From: Ostreococcus lucimarinus
Taxonomy: Eukaryota
DNA length: 64,000 nucleotides
Reading direction: 5' to 3' (one strand)
Assembly (NCBI GenBank): GCA_000092065.1
Contig: CP000601.1
Part shown: positions 2,492 to 38,247 of the stretch, piece after piece
How the letters are laid out: each line of letters starts with the position of its first letter
Numbering within the stretch: the first letter of the stretch is position 1
Translations under genes and position numbers: made by a program
Notes under the pieces: model-generated
What the model was told of the DNA's origin: nothing
Seen by the model: the letters and a program-made list of their open reading frames with translations, nothing else
Databases searched by the model: none

Positions 2492-4603
2492 TCACATCCG
2501 TGATGCGGCGTCGAGAGCTCGAATGGCGTCTCGACTGGCGATGGCATCTTCGATTTCGACCTCGACGTCGACGATGCGGGCGTAGAAGTCGCGGAAGACG
2601 CGGGCGTTTCGCTCGGCTTCCGCCACCGGATCTTCGTTGAGAGGGAAGGTGTCAAAGTAGAGCACGCCGGCGTAGGATATGCGACGTAGCGCGCGGACTA
2701 ATTCCATGGCGGCGTGAGGATGGACGGAGGCGAACATCAAACCGTCTTCGGCGCCGAGACGGGTGTGACCGTCGCCGAGTTGGACGCCGAACAGAGCGTT
2801 TCTCGAAGCCGCCATCGCGATGGACTGGGCTGGATTCTCGCCCGCGGCGAGCGCGTGGCCGACGTCCAGTGTCAGGCCGAAGTTGGGCTCGCCCACGGCG
2901 TCGACGAGTAGGAGTGCGGCACCTGTGGTGGGGATGAAGCTGAAACGGCTCTTTTCGTCCGTCGGCTTGAATTCGACGCTCAACTTGAGCGAGCGACACT
3001 CTTCGCTCGAGGCCACTGCTTTGTAACCGACAATCATGTCCTCCCACGCCGTGGCGTAATCCGCTTGGAGATTGTAATCGTATCCATCGTAGCGAGGCCA
3101 TATGACGACTTCGTCTGCGTCGAGTGCGGTCGCAGTCGCGCACGCCTTGCGTGCCAAAGTCGCCGCGTGTTCGCGAATCACGCCATCGGGATTCGAGAAC
3201 GCGCCCAATCGAAACGGCTCCTCGGGAAATCGCACGCATACGGCGCCAGGGCGCAACTTCGCGGCAAGAATCTTGTCTCGCAATTCCACTGCCGCGAGCT
3301 CGTTGCCGTCTGGTCCGATGAAATGTTCGGGGTAGTTGAGAAACACCGAATGCACGCCCTGAACGCGTCCCATGCGCTTTATGAGGTTGAAGACTTCCGG
3401 AACGTCCGGTTCGGCATCCGTGAATAAGTCTGCGCGAGATTTCATGCTATTCAATCTACTGGCAAATCGAAGTGCCTCGATCGCCGCCTCACTGGACGAC
3501 GAAGACGACGAGATAGGGGACGTTCGGCACGGATCTGAAACGCCAAGAAATTCATCCACGTCGCTCCGAAATGGAAGGCTTGGCATCGCACCCAACTTCG
3601 TCACCGCCAAAGCCCCCGCGGCGCTGGCGAACTTCATGGCGTCGCGCTCGTTTTTATTTTCAGCCATCGCCACCGCGAACGCGGCGCGAAACGCATCACC
3701 AGCCGCGGTGGCGTCCACTTCTTTGGCGCCGGCCGGAAGTTCCATCGATTCGACTCTCGTGACGTCTTCGCCTCTCACGAGCAACGATCCTCGACTCCCC
3801 AGCGTGCACAGAACGGCGACGCGCGACGTTCCTGCGACGATTCTCGCCGCCTTAACGACCGCTTCGTCCCCAGAAGAAACCTCCTCCACGCGCATTCCCG
3901 CCATTCCCGCGAGTTCGCTCTCGTTCGGCGCGACGTAATCCACGAGCGCCAACAACGCCTCATCCGCCGCGTGAAACGAGCCTCCCGCGTCCAGCACGAT
4001 CGTTCGCACACCGATTTCCCTCGCAACCGTCGCCGCTATCACGTTCACGCGTTCCGGCACCTCCCGCTGCAGCATCACCGTCTTCGCGCCTCGCAGCGCC
4101 TCGCGAAACTCGCTCGCCAGCGCCTCGTCGTCCGCGTTCCATCCGAGCGCGTTCGCCCCCCCCACGACCACCGCGCTCGGCGATCCATCGTCCGTCAGCA
4201 TCACGAACCCCATTCCCGTCTCGATTCCGCTCCCTCGCGCCATCGTGACGCTCCCGGACACATCCGTCTCTCGCCGCAGCGCGCGTCGCAGCGTCGTCCC
4301 CGCCTCGTCCTCCCCGAATCGTCCCACGAACGCCGCCTTCCCGCCGCGCTCGCACGTCAATCGCGACGCCGCGACCGCTTGATTCGCTCCCTTCCCTCCG
4401 CACGCGCGCTCGACGCGCGCCGCCGTCGCCGCGCGCGTTTCTCCGCGGCGCGGGACCGATGTTCCGACGCGCGCGATGACGTCGGCGTTCACGCTCCCCA
4501 CGACGGCGATCGACGCGCGGTCGGCGCGCGCGAGCGCGACGCGCGCGAGCGCGGTCAGCGCGGCGCCGAGCGCGAGGCGCCGCGCGCGACGCGCGCGACG
4601 CAT
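2492..4603 (-). CDS. Bifunctional protein: N-terminal pfkB/ribokinase-family sugar kinase fused to a C-terminal xylose-isomerase-like TIM-barrel sugar isomerase
   Basis: The N-terminal half carries pfkB motifs (VGSVNADV, GGKGANQAVAASRL, DTTAAGDAFRAAF). The C-terminal half resembles xylose or L-rhamnose isomerase (SVEFKPTDE...DVGH...VQLGDGH...EDGLMF). It is a single continuous ORF with an ATG at 4603. Confidence 0.65.
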   Translation of the reverse strand: MRRARRARRLALGAALTALARVALARADRASIAVVGSVNADVIARVGTSVPRRGETRAATAARVERACGGKGANQAVAASRLTCERGGKAAFVGRFGEDEAGTTLRRALRRETDVSGSVTMARGSGIETGMGFVMLTDDGSPSAVVVGGANALGWNADDEALASEFREALRGAKTVMLQREVPERVNVIAATVAREIGVRTIVLDAGGSFHAADEALLALVDYVAPNESELAGMAGMRVEEVSSGDEAVVKAARIVAGTSRVAVLCTLGSRGSLLVRGEDVTRVESMELPAGAKEVDATAAGDAFRAAFAVAMAENKNERDAMKFASAAGALAVTKLGAMPSLPFRSDVDEFLGVSDPCRTSPISSSSSSSEAAIEALRFASRLNSMKSRADLFTDAEPDVPEVFNLIKRMGRVQGVHSVFLNYPEHFIGPDGNELAAVELRDKILAAKLRPGAVCVRFPEEPFRLGAFSNPDGVIREHAATLARKACATATALDADEVVIWPRYDGYDYNLQADYATAWEDMIVGYKAVASSEECRSLKLSVEFKPTDEKSRFSFIPTTGAALLLVDAVGEPNFGLTLDVGHALAAGENPAQSIAMAASRNALFGVQLGDGHTRLGAEDGLMFASVHPHAAMELVRALRRISYAGVLYFDTFPLNEDPVAEAERNARVFRDFYARIVDVEVEIEDAIASRDAIRALDAASRM

Positions 4604-4763
4604 CGCGACGACGAATGCGGCGAGCGGATTGGAATGGAATCGAATCGACGCCGCAGAGCGCGGCGTGCGGCGGCTTCGACGACGCTCGAGCGGCGACGAC
4701 GACGAACGCGACGCGACGCGCGGTCGGGCGAGCGACGGGGCGACGGCGAGGACGAGGCGCGCG

Positions 4764-5680: not shown

Positions 5681-7024
5681 ATGGCGTCGGCGGCGGATCG
5701 CATCGCCGCACTTCGCGCGAAAGTCGTGAGCGAGCGAGAAAAAGCGCGCGAGACCTCGCAAATCGCGTCCTCGTCCGCGCGGTCGTCCACAGAAGCGGAA
5801 ACGGTCGCGGATGCTTCCATAGATTTTGAACGAAAACTCGCCGAGTTTCGCGCCGACGCCGACGCGAAGCTGCGCGAGGCCGTCGCGCGAGCGGTCGAAA
5901 AAGAACAAGCGAAGACAGCGGCGATCGTGGAAGCGATGAACGAGGGAAGCGGGGCGACGGAAGGCGCGGATGGAGACGATGCGCGGGCACTGCGGCAAAG
6001 GGTGGCGGCGTTGACGGAGCGCGCGAGCGAGGCGGAACGAATGCGGGGGATGGATCTAGCGAGGAATGCGTCGAGGGAGGACGAACACAAGAAAGAGATC
6101 GCGACGTTGAGGAGTGAGCGCGACAAGATGGCGACGGAATTGAAGAAATTGAGGGCACATTTGTTGGCGCTGGAGGACGAAGAGGACGAGGTGGCGGAGG
6201 AACAGGAACGAGAAATAGACGAGGCGAGAGAGGAGGAAAGGCGAGAATACGAACGGCGTTTAAGCGACTTGAAGAAGAACATGAGTGGAAACGATGCCGA
6301 GGTCACGAGGTTGCGGGAGGTGATAAAGGCTCGAGACGAAGAGGTGGAAAATTTACAAAAGGCGCTCGGGGCATATTACGCTGAAATCGAGAGCGCGGAC
6401 GCGCAGCGCATTGAGTCGGCGAATCTACGACAAAAGCTAGCCGCACTCACCTCGCAGGCGACTGCTGATAGAGCAGCATGCATGGAAGCCAAAGAAAAGG
6501 CGAAGGAAGCGGAGGAAAGGTTGACTAAGTTTGAGGCTCACTTGAAAATCGCCAAGGAGGAATGCATCAAGGCCACGAGCGACGCGAGTAAGCTCAGGAA
6601 AGCGCTCCATCACGCCCTTCAAAAGAGCAGCGATATGATGGTAGAGAGTGAGAAATTGTTGGATAAGCGCATAGTGAGCGATTTATTCATCGCTTATCTC
6701 GAACGCGAACGAGCGGAGGACGTGCTCGATTTGCTCGCAAAAATGCTCGGCTTCACCGACAAACAAAAGGCACGGATGGAAGCTCTAAAGAGACGACAGA
6801 AAAAGCGAGGTGTGCTCGGAACGATCGCGCGCGCGCCCGTGAGCATTGCAGCTGGTGCGATAGGCGTCGCACTCGAAGTTACGGGCGCTACGGGCGAGAA
6901 CAAACCAGTACCAGTCGCAGACTTGTGGATTTCGTTTCTCGAGCAAAACGCAGCCAACGACGAAGAAGTAGAGAACAAAATTCCGTCGTCAAGCGAGCTC
7001 ATCTCAGCCGCGCGCGAATTGTAG
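5681..7024 (+). CDS. Long coiled-coil protein with a GRIP-like C-terminal segment (golgin-like)
   Basis: About 400 aa of heptad-rich E/K/R/A sequence. The C-terminus (IVSDLFIAYLERERAEDVLDLLAKMLGFTDKQK) resembles the GRIP domain, with the conserved Tyr present. Confidence 0.45.
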   Translation: MASAADRIAALRAKVVSEREKARETSQIASSSARSSTEAETVADASIDFERKLAEFRADADAKLREAVARAVEKEQAKTAAIVEAMNEGSGATEGADGDDARALRQRVAALTERASEAERMRGMDLARNASREDEHKKEIATLRSERDKMATELKKLRAHLLALEDEEDEVAEEQEREIDEAREEERREYERRLSDLKKNMSGNDAEVTRLREVIKARDEEVENLQKALGAYYAEIESADAQRIESANLRQKLAALTSQATADRAACMEAKEKAKEAEERLTKFEAHLKIAKEECIKATSDASKLRKALHHALQKSSDMMVESEKLLDKRIVSDLFIAYLERERAEDVLDLLAKMLGFTDKQKARMEALKRRQKKRGVLGTIARAPVSIAAGAIGVALEVTGATGENKPVPVADLWISFLEQNAANDEEVENKIPSSSELISAAREL

Positions 7025-8277: not shown

Positions 8278-8654
8278 CGTGTAATACGGCGAATTAAACG
8301 TCGTGTACCACGACGGCTGTGATGACCATCGATTCGTACCGTCGTCAGTCCTCCGCGTCGCGTCGTCCGCGCGTCGCGTCGCGTCGATTCATTCGTTCCG
8401 TCGGGTTAGTAACCGTCCTCGGAATTCCATCGATTCGCGGCAGTCTCGTCGCGCGCGTCCGCGTCGTCCGCGCGCCCGATCGCGTCGCGTCGCGTCGCAT
8501 CGCACGCACGTCGCCGAAAGGCACGCCCTCGCCGAACGGCTCGCGCGTCGTCATGATTGAACGATTCGATCGATTGTGCCGTCGGCTTGAAGTGACGCGA
8601 CGCGACGACACACGCCGACGCCGACGCGGACGCGGACGCGAGGCGCGAGCACCG

Positions 8655-17041: not shown

Positions 17042-17690
17042 ATGACGTTCGCGACGACGACGCGCGCGACGACGACGACGGCGCGATGCGCGACGACGCG
17101 ACGCGCGACGACGCGACGCGCGCGCGGCGTGTTCGCGGCCGCGCGGTCGAGCGCGACGCGCGCGCGCGCGACGACGAAGACGATGACGACGACGCGAAGG
17201 CTGGAATCGCCGCGCGTCGGGAAGACCACGCGCACGCGCGCGACGCCCGCGGACGATGAAGGCGACGTGCCGTTCGGGTACACGCGCGCGGACGTGATGC
17301 TGATCGGGACCGGGGTCACGGGCGCGGGATTCGCGGCGTACTACGGGTTGCAATCGTTCGCGGGGATGGATTCGACGAAGGCGGGCAACGCGGTGCAGTT
17401 GACGTTCGTGCTCGGATTGACGCTCGCGTGGGTGGGGTCGTACGTCATGCGAGTGTTCAATAAGGACATGACTTACGCGAAGCAGTTGAAGGATGTGCGT
17501 GCGAAGCGAACGAGGCGAGAGCGCGAGACGAAACGCGAAGGAGAAAGAAAACGCGAACCGAAGACTGACGCTCAGACGTTTCGTTTCGACGATGGTTAAA
17601 CAGTACGAAAACGCGGTGATGCAAAAGCGTTTGGAAGAAATGCCGGCGAGCGAGCTGGAGAAGATGATGGACGAATTGGACGAGAAGTGA
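17042..17690 (+). CDS. Small plastid-type membrane protein (DUF3007-like), two exons: join(17042..17494,17604..17690)
   Basis: Exon 1 carries a Thr/Arg/Ala-rich transit-like N-terminus, then GFAAYYGL...LGLTLAWVGSYVMRVFNKDMTYAKQLKD. The donor is GAT|GTGCGT, and the acceptor (aacag|TAC) joins in frame to YENAVMQKRLEEMPASELEKMMDELDEK. The spliced product matches my memory of the cyanobacterial/chloroplast DUF3007 pattern. Confidence 0.5.
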
Positions 17691-22278: not shown

Positions 22279-23556
22279 TTAATACGTAAACTCACCGTAT
22301 TCACTCTTCACCACGACTTCAGACTTGCCATCCTTGGCTTCGACTCTGCCGACGACGCGGGCGTCGATGTTAAAGCTCTGGCTAATATCGATAATCTTTT
22401 GCGCGTGTTCGGGGGAGCAGTAAAACTCGAGACGATGTCCGCAGTTGAACACTTTGTACATCTCGCTCCATTCGGTGTTGGAGCACTCCTGGATCAAGCG
22501 GAAGAGCGGGGGAATGGGGAACATGTTATCCTTGACGACGCGCAAGCCGTCGAGGAGAAAGTGTCCAACCTTGGACTGCGCGCCGCCGCTGCAGTGCACC
22601 ATGCCGTGAATATCCCTCACGTCCATGGCATCGAGCACGGCTTTCACCACGGGGGCGTACGTTCGCGTCGGACTGAGCACCAACTTGCCAACCGTCACGC
22701 CGGTTTCCGGCTCGACGTCGGTGAGCTGATACTTGCCGCTGTACACCAACGATTCGGGTACGTTCGGATCGAACGTTTCCGGATATTTTTCCGCCAAATT
22801 CTTCGCAAACACGTCGTGTCGAGCAGACGTCAATCCGTTGCTTCCCATTCCGCCGTTGTACTCGCTCTCGTACGTCGCTTGACCGAACGACGCCAAACCG
22901 ACGACGACGTCTCCGGCGCGAATGTTGTCGTTACTCACCACCGCGTCTCTTCGCATGCGCGCCGTGACCGTGGTGTCCACCACCACCGTGCGCACTAAAT
23001 CACCCAAATCCGCGGTTTCACCTCCCGTGGACTTCACCCCGACCCCACACTCGCGCAAAGTCTCCAAAACCTCCTCCGTCCCGTTGATGAGCGCGCTCAG
23101 CACCTCCCCCGGAATCAAAGCCTTATTCCTCCCGATCGTGCTCGAGACGAATATGTTATCCACGCACCCGACGCACAACAAATCATCCGTGTTCATCACG
23201 ATCGAATCCTGCGCGATTCCTCGCCACACTCCCAAATCTCCCGTCTCTCTCCAGTACGCGTACGCCAGGCTCGTCTTCGTCCCCGCGCCGTCCGCGTGCA
23301 TGCACGTGCAGTACGCCTCGTCCCCAGCGATGTCCTCCACGATCTTACAGAACGCCTTCGGGAACAATCCCTTGTCCACCTTCTTTATCGCCGCGTGCAC
23401 GTCCTCCTTGGACGCGCTCACGCCGCGCATCGCGTACCGCTCGTCCGCCGCCGCGCTCGCCCTCGCGTTCGCCCTCGCGTTCGTTCGCGTCGTCGCGCGC
23501 GCGCGCCATCGCGACGGCATCGCGCGCGCCGTCGTCGTCGTCGTCGCCGTCGCCAT
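22279..23556 (-). CDS. purM: PurM-like protein (AIR synthetase / phosphoribosylformylglycinamidine cyclo-ligase family)
   Basis: The PurM superfamily architecture is present: HADGAGTK, GGETADLGD, and a C-terminal MYKVFNCGHRLEFYCSPE that parallels E. coli PurM MYRTFNCGVGM. An N-terminal Arg/Ala-rich presequence precedes it. Confidence 0.65.
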   Translation of the reverse strand: MATATTTTTARAMPSRWRARATTRTNARANARASAAADERYAMRGVSASKEDVHAAIKKVDKGLFPKAFCKIVEDIAGDEAYCTCMHADGAGTKTSLAYAYWRETGDLGVWRGIAQDSIVMNTDDLLCVGCVDNIFVSSTIGRNKALIPGEVLSALINGTEEVLETLRECGVGVKSTGGETADLGDLVRTVVVDTTVTARMRRDAVVSNDNIRAGDVVVGLASFGQATYESEYNGGMGSNGLTSARHDVFAKNLAEKYPETFDPNVPESLVYSGKYQLTDVEPETGVTVGKLVLSPTRTYAPVVKAVLDAMDVRDIHGMVHCSGGAQSKVGHFLLDGLRVVKDNMFPIPPLFRLIQECSNTEWSEMYKVFNCGHRLEFYCSPEHAQKIIDISQSFNIDARVVGRVEAKDGKSEVVVKSEYGEFTY

Positions 23557-23777
23557 CGCGCGCGTCGGTGTCGCGCGCCGCGCGTCGGTCGGCGCCGGCG
23601 ACGCGCGAGGTCGATTTCGAAATCGAATTCGAAATCACACCCGCGCGCGGTGCCAATACACGACCGACCGCGACGTCGGACTGTTTACCCACACGACATC
23701 GACGCCTCGGAGGCGCGCGCGATCCGGTCGCCCCGCACACGCGCGCGCGCGACGACGCGACGCGACGCGATCGCGGC

Positions 23778-25457
23778 ATGACGAGGCCGATCACGACGAG
23801 TGCGTGAAGAACGACGCGAGCGACGCGACGCGACGCGACGCGAGACGACGCGACGCGCGAGACGACGCGACGAGGGCGATCGCGACGGTCGTCGGAAAGA
23901 TGTCCGGAAACCATCCGCGAGACGCGGCGACGACCGGAGACGCGACGACGGCGACGGGAGAGCGTTGGGACGGGCGCGAAAGATGGGAGAGCGCGCGACG
24001 GTGCGAATGGAGGCGCGCGAGGACGAAGGACTGACGACGCGCGCGGTTTCGGGGACGACGCAGTATGTTGCATCGGCGCGGGATACGTGGGCGGGCCGAC
24101 GATGGCGATGATCGCGAAGAAGTGCCCGCAGATCTCGGTCACGGTGGTGGACATCTCGCAGCCGAGGATCGACGCGTGGAACTCGAGCGAGCTGCCGATT
24201 TATGAGCCCGGGTTGGATGAGATCGTGTTCGAGTGCAGAGGGAAGAACTTGTTCTTTTCGACGGATGTCGAAGGGGCTATTCGAGACTGCGAGATGATTT
24301 TCGTCTCCGTGAACACGCCGACGAAGAAGACTGGTTTAGGAAAAGGTAAGGCGGCGGATTTGACGTACTGGGAGTTGGCGGCGCGCACCATCGCGGCGTG
24401 CTCCGAGAGTGATAAGATCATCGTTGAGAAGTCTACGGTGCCCGTGCGAACGGCGGAGGCCATTGAAAAGGTGCTCCAGCGCAACTGCCCGCACGACGGC
24501 GTGCGATTCGACATCTTGTCCAACCCAGAATTCTTGGCCGAAGGTACGGCCATTGTAGACTTGGATGCGCCCGATCGCGTGTTGATCGGGGGTAAGATTG
24601 AAAACGCCAAAGGTCAAGCGGCGGTGGACGCGCTCGTAGGCGTGTACTCCAACTGGGTACCGAAAGAGAACATTCTGACCGCTAACTTGTGGTCTGCCGA
24701 GCTCTCAAAGCTCGCTGCGAACGCATTCTTGGCGCAGCGCATTTCTTCCATCAACGCCATGAGCGCGCTTTGTGAAGCGACCGGCGCGGATGTCCAGCAA
24801 GTTTCGCACGCCATCGGCACCGACACGCGTATCGGCTCCAAATTTTTGAACGCCTCGGTCGGTTTCGGTGGCTCGTGCTTCCAAAAGGATATCTTAAACT
24901 TGGCATACATTTGTGAGTGCCACGGCTTGCCGGAAGTGGCGGAGTACTGGCACAGCGTTGTCGGCATGAACGACTACCAAAAGAGCCGCTTCGTCAAGCG
25001 CATGATTTCCGCCATGTTCAACACGATCAGCGGCAAGAAGATTTCAATGCTCGGTTACGCTTTTAAGAAAGATACGGGTGATACTCGTGAGTCTCCGGCT
25101 ATCGACGTCGGTCACGGCCTCATCGAAGACGGTGCGAAGCTCAATATTTATGACCCGAAGGTTGCTGCGGCGCAAATCGCGTTGGACATGGGCGAGGAAG
25201 CGATGAAATCCATCACGTGCTGCAAGACTCACACTGAGTCTTTGACTGGTGCGCACGCCGTGTGCATTATGACGGAATGGGACGAGTTCAAGACGTACGA
25301 CTGGGAAGCGATCTATGGCGTCATGCAAAAGCCGGCCTTTGTGTTCGACGGCCGCCTCATCTTGGACCACCAGAAGTTGAAGGACATTGGTTTCATTGTG
25401 TATGCGCTTGGGAAGCCTTTAGATCCTTTCCTTTGCTCCGCCGAAGGCGCACCGTAA
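23778..25457 (+). CDS. UGD: UDP-glucose 6-dehydrogenase, two exons: join(23778..23799,24064..25457)
   Basis: Exon 2 is essentially full-length UGDH ([14 protein letters not shown]...[12 protein letters not shown]...). There is no in-frame ATG: the track ORF starts at GTG 24087, and the frame is open back to 24064, which follows a cag acceptor. The upstream ATG at 23778 (MTRPITT) ends in A|GTGCGT. Splicing the two gives [18 protein letters not shown], restoring the conserved ICCIGAG N-terminus. Confidence 0.75.
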
Positions 25458-25542
25458 GTATGTACGTCGTGTGTCAGTAGTACGTCGCTAGTGATTGTAA
25501 CGTTTCTACCTAAAATCTCTAAGAATAACAAAGATTGCTGTC

Positions 25543-27159
25543 CTATTTGCGACCTATTCCGCTTATCTCAGCGTCGACCGCCGCTACGTAATCTTGGATT
25601 TGAAACTTTCTCTTGCAACCGGCGTAATTCATATACCGCACTTTACCGAACACCGCGCGCTCTTTCCATCCTTGATCGTGCACACCGGCAATGCTCCACA
25701 TACAACCAACGTAGCCGTTGGGATCGAGACCGTCTAACGCGTAAGCGTCGTTGAGTTGAATCGCCGTCTGCAGGGCCACCTCCGGCGACGGCGTCCACTC
25801 AAGAATCTTCTTCGCCCAGTACATTCTCATGAACCCATGCATTCGTCCGAGATGGTATAATTCTTTCTGAGCCGCGTTCCAAAGCTCGTCGTGCGTGTTG
25901 CCACGCTCGAGTGTTTTGTAATCGTACACGTACTCGCGAACGTCGCGGGCGTGCAAACTCAGTGAATCTTGCGCCCATTGACTCGCTCCTTGCAACGAGT
26001 CGTAATACGGATTGAAGAGACAATAGTTGTCTGATAATTCCCTTCGAACGATGAGCTCTTCCAAGTAGCTATCGATCGCCTCGTCGTCTACGATTCCCCG
26101 AAGTTGCGCAGCTTCCCACGCGGCGCGACGTGGCGACAGCTGGCCGTGATTCAAGTACGGCGAGAGGCGAGACACGGCGCGCGGCGACGTCGGCTTGTTT
26201 CGCTCCCCGTAGAGTGTCAATCGCTGTGGGAGGAAAGAGTCGACATTCGGATCGAGCAGCGCGGCTAAGGCGGCACGTTCACCCGGTTTGATCCAGTCAA
26301 CCTCTGGGACGTGCGCGCCCTTGACGCGCGCGGTGTCAATCAATGCGTCCCAATCCGTCTCACTTGGCGTCAACGCGTCCGGCGCGGCGATGAGATCATC
26401 TAACGCTTGCGGTGCGGTGAGAAAATCCCCGAGATTTCGATGAATCTTCGGCCGAATCGTTCTCGCCGCGTACTCTTGCTTATCGCTCGTCACCCACGCC
26501 GGCACGACGTTGTGCGCGTCCACTTCAATCACCGGAACCTCCACCACACGCGCCACCGCTTCCCTCGCCGCACGCCCCTCTCGCAACGGCGAAAAGTCAC
26601 ACACGACCGCACTCGCATTCAGCGTCTCGCACGTCTCCACGATTCCTCCCGCGACGTCGCTTCCCGTCGTCGTTCGCGTCGACACTCCTCGCGCTCGCAA
26701 ATCCTCATCCAATTCCTTCAACCCCTTCAGCGCGAACACCGCCCTGCGCGCGCCTCCGATGCCGCTCCCGCTCAAATCTGTCCCCACGTGCATCGCCACG
26801 ACGAGCGGGACGCGCCTTTCGTTCGCCAATTCCATCGCTCGTCCCAGCGCGTCGTTATTCGCGCACCGCCTGTCCCGGTCGCACCAGTACACCACCGGCC
26901 CCGCGCTCGCGCTCGCGCTCGCGCTCGCGCGCGCGCGCGCCGACGCATCCAACGCCGCCTTCGCCGCGTCGTTCATCCCTCGGCACCGTCGCGCGTCCAC
27001 GCCATCGCGCGCACCGCGCGTCGTCGTCGCCGTCGCTGTCGTCGTCGTCGCACCGCGCGCGCCCGTCGTCGCGCCCGCGCGCCGTCGCGCGAGCGCGCGC
27101 GCGAGTCGCGCGCGCGCGCCGTGCGCGCGCACGGCGTCTCGAATCGCGAGAGACGCCAT
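25543..27159 (-). CDS. PHR: Deoxyribodipyrimidine photolyase, class II (CPD photolyase)
   Basis: The class II C-terminal FAD-binding region is present (LGRMHGFMRMYWAKKILEWT...YVGCMWSIAGVHDQGWKERAVFGKVRYMNYAGCKRKF). The ATG at 27159 was confirmed. Confidence 0.8.
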   Translation of the reverse strand: MASLAIRDAVRAHGARARLARALARRRAGATTGARGATTTTATATTTRGARDGVDARRCRGMNDAAKAALDASARARASASASASAGPVVYWCDRDRRCANNDALGRAMELANERRVPLVVAMHVGTDLSGSGIGGARRAVFALKGLKELDEDLRARGVSTRTTTGSDVAGGIVETCETLNASAVVCDFSPLREGRAAREAVARVVEVPVIEVDAHNVVPAWVTSDKQEYAARTIRPKIHRNLGDFLTAPQALDDLIAAPDALTPSETDWDALIDTARVKGAHVPEVDWIKPGERAALAALLDPNVDSFLPQRLTLYGERNKPTSPRAVSRLSPYLNHGQLSPRRAAWEAAQLRGIVDDEAIDSYLEELIVRRELSDNYCLFNPYYDSLQGASQWAQDSLSLHARDVREYVYDYKTLERGNTHDELWNAAQKELYHLGRMHGFMRMYWAKKILEWTPSPEVALQTAIQLNDAYALDGLDPNGYVGCMWSIAGVHDQGWKERAVFGKVRYMNYAGCKRKFQIQDYVAAVDAEISGIGRK

Positions 27160-37090: not shown

Positions 37091-37762
37091 CTACTTCACG
37101 AACCTCGTAATGATGACCACAACTACGCCGACGACGACCAAAAAGAGCAAGAGCATGATGCACTTATCCGTCGCTAACCCACGGGTGATGTCCTTCAGCA
37201 CGCCAAACGACTTTTTCAACGAAAAGTGGATTTCATCGAGATCATCTACGATTTTCTCCAGTTGTTTTGTCTGCCCGCGCAACGCCTCGGCGGTTTGCGT
37301 CCCTATTTGAATCGTCTCCTCAACCACCGCTTCGCTTCGCATGATGCTCTTATCCGTTTGGTCCATGACGTTCCTACCGTGATCAATCAAATCCCCAGCC
37401 TCCATGAGTTGCAACTGCTCATCCTCTACAATCTCCCCCTTTGGCTTTGGCCGGAACGCCGGCAACGTAAACGCCGTCGACGTAGCCGTCGTCGACGTCG
37501 TCACCCCTCCCGACGTGCTCGCTTCCCCGCCCTGACTACCAACCTCGCTCTTCCTCTCTTCTTGTTTCTCCGCGATCGCAATCTGCGCCTCCTTCTTCAT
37601 CTGCACAAACTTGTTCAACCTCGACACGTATTCCTTCTTCGCCGCCGCCAACGCGTTCGCGTCCATGGCCCCTTCGCTCAGCGCCCGTCTCTCAAACTCC
37701 TTGATCAGCTTTTTACTCTCCGCCATTTTATTGGTCAACTTTTTCAAGTGTCCGCTCGACAC
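37091..37762 (-). CDS. VTI1: Vti1-family Qb-SNARE with C-terminal transmembrane anchor
   Basis: The SNARE motif IDHGRNVMDQTDKSIMRSEAVVEETIQIGTQTAEALRGQTKQLEKI matches the Vti1 pattern. The C-terminal TM reads IMLLLFLVVVGVVVVIITRF. Confidence 0.7.
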   Translation of the reverse strand: MSSGHLKKLTNKMAESKKLIKEFERRALSEGAMDANALAAAKKEYVSRLNKFVQMKKEAQIAIAEKQEERKSEVGSQGGEASTSGGVTTSTTATSTAFTLPAFRPKPKGEIVEDEQLQLMEAGDLIDHGRNVMDQTDKSIMRSEAVVEETIQIGTQTAEALRGQTKQLEKIVDDLDEIHFSLKKSFGVLKDITRGLATDKCIMLLLFLVVVGVVVVIITRFVK

Positions 37763-38247
37763 CGACGTCTCGCGGCTCTCGAGAACGTCCTTACGCTTGA
37801 ATCCGTCCCTGCGCCGACGCGTCGCGAGCTCGCTCCGTCAGTCCCGTCCCTCGCGCGTATTCCGTCTCGTCGCGTCGCTCGCGTCGCTCGAATCCCATCC
37901 CATCGCATCGCGCGACGCACTCTAACTCCGCGAACGCCGTCCGCAGCTGATCTCGCGTCGCCTGCGCGCTCATCGCGTCGTCGTCGACCGTCGATCGCGC
38001 CACGTGTTGTCGGTCGTCGTCGCCCCGCGCGCCCGTCGCGACGACTCACGCCCGATCGCGCGTCGGCGATCGCGCCGTCGTCGCGTTCTCGCCGTCGACC
38101 GATCGCGATCGCGCGATCGCGTCGAGACGTCGCGTCGAGACGTCGTCGAATTGTGGCGTCGACGCGCGCGCGCATTCGCGTCGTCGCGTCGACTCGCGAG
38201 CGATTAGAATGACTCGTTCGTTACAAACTCGCGCCCGTCGTCGTCGC

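Follow-up and report, generated by a model that had tools for sequence, protein, structure and literature searches.

The stretch of Ostreococcus lucimarinus DNA under study (64 kb, hereafter the window, whose numbering is used throughout) almost certainly harbors the annotated two-exon UDP-glucose 6-dehydrogenase (UGDH) gene of this alga, with a 22-nt first exon and a canonical 264-nt intron. According to this model, transcription would begin at or upstream of 23764, the 22-nt coding micro-exon would open with the first AUG (23778), and a U2-type spliceosome would excise the 264-nt phase-1 intron using the GTGCGTG donor, the CAG acceptor, and, 29 nt before the end of the intron, the branch site GACTGACG. 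Ile8 would then be read from the last A of exon 1 together with the TA of exon 2, and translation would yield a 471-aa enzyme in which the first β-strand (ITTICC) and the GAGYVGG NAD-binding loop are both intact. We infer that AUG 23778 is the one used by ribosomes. A preliminary description of this DNA, made from the sequence alone, had placed the exon at 23778–23799, the donor at 23800, a 264-nt intron, and the acceptor at 24064, and each of these turned out to be correct to the base. The splice and the N-terminus that it proposed are borne out by the junction found in an intron-less contig (L005), by micro-exons in related genomes, and by an exactly matching deposited protein.

Gene Structure and Genomic Context

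Once 23799 and 24064 are joined, the CDS measures 1416 nt, contains a single stop, at its end, and encodes 471 residues that end in ...SAEGAP; the final A of exon 1 together with the TA of exon 2 forms the Ile8 codon. The features of the locus are collected in table 1, along with the corresponding first exons of related genomes. The intron has a G+C content of 70% against 56% in exon 2, and a (CGACG)n simple repeat was detected with TRF in its 5' part (23812–23872). If left unspliced, the ATG at 23778 lies in the UGDH frame and reaches a TGA at 23805–23807 after nine codons, giving MTRPITTSA followed by the stop. The continuous UGDH frame contains no ATG upstream of 24099 (MAMIAK), and the list of open reading frames starts this frame at the GTG at 24087. 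The ATG at 23778 is the first on the plus strand after the divergent start codon of the AIRS gene (23556), from which it is separated by a shared upstream region of 221 nt; the three further plus-strand ATGs that precede 24064 are intronic, and their unspliced frames differ from that of UGDH. A single UGDH copy is present in the 64-kb window.

The neighboring ORFs on either side, one for AIRS and one for a class II photolyase-like protein, have exact matches in the protein collection; together with the exact match of UGDH, they identify the window as nuclear DNA of O. lucimarinus. The segment downstream of the UGDH stop (25458–25822) extends into the last part of the photolyase gene (25543–27159, minus strand), so that its contiguity with the CDS in L005 reflects either the UGDH 3' UTR or a merging with the transcript of the convergent photolyase gene. 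An Rfam scan of 23500–24200 detected no family in the intron and returned one chance-level miRNA match outside it (E = 0.89).

Two further features of this region are recorded here in their own right. A palindromic tandem motif, TCGAATTCGAAA / TTCGAAAT, was found by TRF at 23611–23636 in the divergent upstream region of AIRS and UGDH; it contrasts with surroundings of ~70% G+C and could be a promoter element. Additionally, two long Arg/Ala-rich ORFs, of 370 aa at 22922–24034 (plus strand) and 269 aa at 23345–24154 (minus strand), cross the intron and the intergenic region or run antisense to AIRS. These are not genes; they are by-products of non-coding sequence that is high in G+C and poor in stops.

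Table 1. Features of the UGDH locus, with the homologous first exons and mid-intron patch of related genomes (a slash separates exon from donor or acceptor from exon)
Feature	Position	Strand	Sequence or product	Evidence or remark
AIRS/PurM (phosphoribosylformylglycinamidine cyclo-ligase), divergent neighbor	22279..23556	-		ORF; exact protein match
UGDH 5' UTR, minimal	23764..23777	+		Matches L005 nt 31-44 at 100%; predicted transcription start at or before 23764
UGDH exon 1, coding part, 22 nt	23778..23799	+	ATGACGAGGCCGATCACGACGA; MTRPITT plus first base of Ile8	
UGDH intron, spliceosomal, 264 nt, phase 1	23800..24063	+		Absent from L005
5' splice site	23800..23806	+	GTGCGTG	Species consensus of O. 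lucimarinus; unchanged across 10 environmental contigs
Branch-site motif	24029..24036	+	GACTGACG	Presumed branch A 24034, 29 nt before last intron base
3' splice site	24061..24063	+	CAG (intron end ...gacgcag)	L005 junction; cag or tag in relatives
UGDH exon 2	24064..25457	+	Starts TATGTTGCATCGG; residues 8-471 plus TAA stop	Pfam and human UGDH matches
Downstream of UGDH stop	25458..25822	+		Contiguous with CDS in L005 (nt 1461-1825)
First exon, L004 (94% relative)			ATGACGCGAGAGATTAAGAAGA / GTGCGT; MTREIKK-I	Acceptor tag / TATGCTGC
First exon, L001 (90% relative)			ATGGTGGAGATTAAGAAGA / GTGCGT; MVEIKK-I	Acceptor cag / TATGCTGC
First exon, L006 (O. tauri type)			ATGGTCACCGTCACGAAGA / GTGCGT; MVTVTK-I	Acceptor cag / TATGCTGC; equals annotated N-terminus of CEG00125.1
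First exon, L008 (Bathycoccus prasinos)			ATGGTCAAGATTACCAAAA / GTACGC; MVKITK-I	Acceptor ttcag / TTTGCTGC; 270-nt intron
First exon, L020 (80%-identical Mamiellales contig)			ATGACGAAGATTACTTCCA / GTGAGT; MTKITS-I	Acceptor acag / TCTGCTGC
Mid-intron patch, relatively A/T-rich	Window 23886-23915; L001 ~5930-5950; L004 ~4697-4716; L006 ~2848-2860		ggaaagatgtccggaaacc / ggaaaatcttccgga / ggaagattttccgcg / gttccggagg	Weakly alignable

An Intron-Less Contig Joins the Two Exons

L005 is a contig of 1825 nt from the Logan assembly of the public run SRR17229554. According to BLAST, its nt 31–66 correspond to window positions 23764–23799 at 100% identity and its nt 67–1825 to positions 24064–25822 at 99.94%, so that precisely the 264 nt comprised between GT and AG are missing and 23799 is joined directly to 24064. 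This is the junction that the preliminary description had singled out as the observation by which its model could be checked. The ORF called on L005 is the exact 471-aa spliced protein, and the first ATG of the contig, at nt 45, is the AUG at 23778, in frame; no ATG lies upstream of the match at nt 31–44. The interpretation of L005 as a spliced transcript rests on this precise absence of the GT..AG intron, the library type of SRR17229554 being unverified and a literature search on the run having returned no mention of it.

The first 30 nt of L005 (ggtgccaagtcccctgaattggcaaagaag) are foreign to the window. They gave no match in the 64-kb window with up to three mismatches or with a 14-mer core, nor any in the JGI metagenome contigs. 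This imperfection of the contig speaks for a reading in which another upstream 5' exon provides the start codon, L005 being an artefact of assembly; to this reading we assign only a very slight probability. The window reads GC at 23762–23763, and since no AG precedes 23764, the foreign segment does not adjoin a canonical acceptor and was not joined on by canonical splicing of an upstream exon; a chimera formed during assembly is its probable explanation. Against the same reading, no ATG other than that at 23778 lies between the start of the divergent AIRS gene and the intron, the junction in L005 falls exactly at GT..AG with consensus signals, and a homologous ATG-bearing micro-exon occurs in the same phase in five independent related genomes. 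Outside L005, the spliced junction was sought in the JGI metagenome contigs with the degenerate pattern ATYAMGAMGATATGYTGCATCGG, which covers the window, L001, and L004; there were 0 matches.

The First Exon Completes the NAD-Binding Domain

The spliced protein matched three Pfam families, the NAD-binding N-terminal domain (PF03721, 9.7e-62), the central domain (PF00984, 1.8e-32), and the UDP-binding C-terminal domain (PF03720, 1.7e-30), all of them far above the curated cut-offs. Based on ~62–68% identity to characterized eukaryotic UGDHs, the protein is predicted to carry out the NAD+-dependent two-step oxidation of UDP-glucose to UDP-glucuronate. When aligned with human UGDH chains (E = 1.6e-181), residue 5 of the spliced protein was paired with human residue 4, which agrees with the earlier proposal that the reconstructed Ile-Cys-Cys restores the N-terminus of eukaryotic UGDH.

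The contribution of the micro-exon becomes apparent at the edge of the PF03721 profile, which is matched from position 2 (residue 7) in the spliced protein and from position 16 in the unspliced ORF that begins at the 24099 ATG (MAMIAK...). The first β-strand and the GxGxxG dinucleotide-binding loop are complete in the spliced product only. The GAGYVGG loop lies within exon 2, ahead of every in-frame ATG of that exon, and it is therefore the micro-exon that provides the initiator along with the start of strand β1 (ITTICC).

These observations bear directly on the reading that there is no intron and that translation begins within the long ORF, either at GTG 24087 or at ATG 24099 (MAMIAK...), which we consider as improbable as an alternative 5' exon. 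In its favor, a 451-aa MAMIAK product is emitted by gene callers on many metagenome contigs (P0121, P0131, P0004, and P0005). However, a start at this sole downstream ATG would remove the GxGxxG NAD-binding motif and the first strand, and the resulting protein lacks PF03721 positions 1–15, to which the first β-strand and the GAGYVGG loop correspond. The codons for this strand and loop, upstream of the 24099 ATG, are conserved in every relative, and L005 carries AUG 23778 in frame as its first AUG. Additionally, the homologs from transcriptomes or transcript-like contigs all start ~6–8 residues before ICCIGAG, and the 456-aa product of the GTG start is absent from a collection of ~15 billion proteins. 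The sequences in question, from the MMETSP transcriptome project or from JGI transcript-like contigs of ~1.5 kb, begin with MVKITTICC, MNNITKICC, MVVVKTICC, and MGKIKVTSICC.

Conservation of the Micro-Exon in Mamiellales and in Natural Populations

The two-exon arrangement recurs in the relatives of O. lucimarinus. In the large collection, P0002 and P0003 come closest to the protein, with 94% and 90% identity, respectively, and the gene order AIRS (minus), UGDH (plus), photolyase (minus) is common to the window, the contigs of these two proteins (L001 and L004), and the O. tauri-type contig L006. A micro-exon of 19 or 22 nt, opening with ATG and ending one base into an Ile codon, was identified in L001, L004, L006, L008, and L020 (table 1), and either TACTGAC or TACTAAC is found in the relatives at the position equivalent to the GACTGACG branch site. 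Apart from the splice signals, the intron sequences of the relatives hardly align. Given these homologous micro-exons at the same codon, the position of the UGDH intron is old and conserved.

The same comparison bears on an origin of the intron as a recently inserted repeated element of the "introner" type described for Micromonas. Repeated intron families ("introners") are known in Micromonas, and the UGDH intron is GC-rich, carries simple (CGACG)n repeats, and belongs to a Mamiellales genome. This origin, which we hold to be extremely improbable, was rejected: no second copy of the intron exists within the 64-kb window, the intron sequences align poorly outside the splice signals, and the orthologous phase-1 site is occupied by an intron in each of five related genomes, those of O. 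tauri, Bathycoccus, two other close relatives, and L020. The intron accordingly predates the divergence of these lineages.

Variation within natural populations was examined in ten environmental genomic contigs with an identical 451-aa ORF, aligned to window positions 23600–24110. None of them differs in the donor, the branch site, or the acceptor, and the intron exhibits SNPs along with a 10-nt, hence non-triplet, indel at about 23899. In the micro-exon, the only changes are A23790G (I5V) and C23797A (T7K), the latter introducing the Lys that precedes ICC in relatives and in human UGDH.

Separately, an intron at the equivalent position was observed at 1600–1960 of L021, a 265-kb pilon-polished long-read contig from another Mamiellales alga. 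This contig has ATA in place of the expected ATG of the micro-exon and a frameshift in exon 2, both of which are likely residual assembly errors.

Splice Signals

The consensus of O. lucimarinus introns consists of a GTGCGTG donor and a GACTGACG branch site (Irimia and Roy 2008; PMC2483917). In the same study, EST-confirmed introns located outside chromosome 2 exhibited very strong 5' splice sites, with ACTGAC present in 87% of them and GACTGACG in 66.5% (PMC2483917). The UGDH intron agrees with the U2-type canonical class of this species in its GT..AG borders with GTGCGTG, in its (G)ACTGAC(G) near the 3' end, and in its precise removal, presumably from RNA, as indicated by the 23799/24064 junction of L005. 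It is an ordinary O. lucimarinus intron that follows the short initiator exon of a housekeeping gene.

Motif occurrence was evaluated over the whole window. GTGCGTG was observed 24 times against 15.9 expected, GACTGACG six times against 4.3 expected, and a loose scan for donor, branch site, and acceptor gave six matches against 5.1 expected from shuffles. Since the motifs are weakly enriched, or not at all, in this GC-rich window, motif counting was dropped as evidence, and the weight rests on the intron-less contig and on the comparative data. The preliminary description had further pointed out that the UGDH intron has the same GTGCGT donor as introns of RACK1 and of a DUF3007-like gene. The donor is indeed the same, but it creates no special link between these introns, because GTGCGTG is the genome-wide consensus of the species (PMC2483917).

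Other introns of this kind were noted in the window. One that combines GTGCGT and GACTGACG lies at 17495–17575 (plus strand, 81 nt) and interrupts an ORF for a DUF3007-like membrane protein (17042–17599) after ...AKQLKD. Another, of 112 nt, lies at 37920–37809 (minus strand), a short distance upstream of an ORF for a SNARE-like protein (37091–37762, minus strand). On the minus strand, GTGCGTG (8503–8509) is also paired with GACTGACG (8343–8350), which suggests a third further intron.

Possible Function of the Intron

A start-proximal micro-exon and a phase-1 intron have been kept at one codon of UGDH in Ostreococcus and its close relatives, in Bathycoccus, and in a further Mamiellales lineage. 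Mamiellales genomes are extremely compact and intron-poor. That the intron might be retained for a function, as a boost to expression or export or as a regulatory site, is a tentative proposal drawn from this pattern, and we hold it to be rather unlikely. It has been proposed that O. lucimarinus introns boost the export or the expression of highly expressed genes (Lanier et al. 2008; PMC2367439), and that work holds nothing specific on 5'-proximal introns or on UGDH.

A relatively A/T-rich patch was observed in the middle of the intron (table 1). Besides the splice signals, nothing else aligns among the four Ostreococcus-type introns, and two environmental contigs (L010 and L014) carry a 10-nt duplication, TCCGGAAACC, located exactly at this patch. 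As a possibility, this GGAA..TCCGG patch, weakly common to the four loci, may be a candidate regulatory site.

Deposited Models and the Output of Gene Callers

An exact look-up among ~15 billion proteins retrieved the 471-aa spliced product from its first to its last residue. It has been deposited twice, as ABO99397.1 / XP_001421104.1 and as ABP01209.1 / XP_001422850.1, in each case under the name "predicted protein [Ostreococcus lucimarinus CCE9901]", and its UniRef name is UDP-glucose 6-dehydrogenase. The two-exon UGDH model is thus already known, and the public O. lucimarinus annotation contains exactly the same one. A literature search combining Ostreococcus and UDP-glucose dehydrogenase returned nothing on the structure of the UGDH gene.

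The preliminary description had called the first exon invisible to ORF finding, which holds for plain ORF finding and fails for annotation, the exact protein being present in GenBank and RefSeq. Its further statement that such micro-exons are systematically missed applies to prokaryote-type callers run on metagenome contigs and does not extend, for this gene, to the eukaryotic reference annotation of either O. lucimarinus or O. tauri. On metagenome contigs, such callers produced truncations of the MAMIAK type in P0121, P0131, P0004, P0005, and P0013–15, and false N-termini read through from the intron in P0002, P0003, P0128, P0132, and P0133. Many truncated or read-through UGDH entries (MAMIAK..., MCWIDSWLFSRVVCC..., and MITRSDDTDDEFSRAVCC...) are found in public protein collections.

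The case illustrates how prokaryote-style ORF calling on metagenome contigs of picoeukaryotes generates truncated and read-through N-termini, and it indicates that the correct eukaryotic gene model, 22-nt initiator exon included, is recoverable from raw sequence. Beyond such quality control, the finding has little consequence: because the reference annotation already holds the model, nothing changes for the biology of O. lucimarinus.

Two observations on deposited models stand apart from the above. One 471-aa protein has two accession pairs in O. lucimarinus, and the window contains one UGDH copy, for which reason another part of the genome may contain a second, identical UGDH locus or a duplicate of the gene model. 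In Bathycoccus prasinos (GCA_964199525.1; L008, 2001–5314), the deposited UGDH model, P0009, is 692 aa in length; it contains the micro-exon codons, preceded by ~220 residues without counterpart in the 468–470-aa homologs with which it was compared, and these homologs start with MVKIT(K/T)ICC. The N-terminus of P0009 is probably over-extended or part of a fused gene model.

Comparison with Known Systems

Four known systems can be set beside the gene described here. The first is the deposited O. lucimarinus protein itself (XP_001421104.1 / ABO99397.1), which is identical to the spliced product over 471 residues, MTRPITTICC included, with no detectable difference; as the identity covers all 471 residues, the deposited model, judged from its protein, must use the 22-nt exon and the intron. 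The second is human UGDH (PDB 2q3e, 3tdk, and others), an enzyme from another kingdom in which the segment of the catalytic Cys aligns identically with the spliced protein. We take the catalytic Cys of this UGDH motif to be the counterpart of human Cys276.

The third is the canonical class of O. lucimarinus introns located outside chromosome 2 (PMC2483917), to which the UGDH intron conforms exactly in both GTGCGTG and GACTGACG and in being GC-rich; its 264 nt exceed the median length reported for the whole set of predicted introns in this alga, 111 nt (PMC2483917), and no other difference was found.

The fourth is the UGDH of O. tauri (CEG00125.1 / XP_022840214.1, "Nucleotide sugar dehydrogenase", 469 aa), whose N-terminus, MVTVTKICC, is that obtained by joining the L006 micro-exon to exon 2. 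The O. tauri gene resembles that of the window in gene order, in the phase-1 intron within the Ile codon, in the GTGCGT donor, in the ACTGAC branch motif, and in the CAG acceptor. It differs in the length of the micro-exon (19 nt, i.e., six codons plus one base, vs. 22 nt) and of the intron (~200 vs. 264 nt), and the two intron sequences are largely unalignable.
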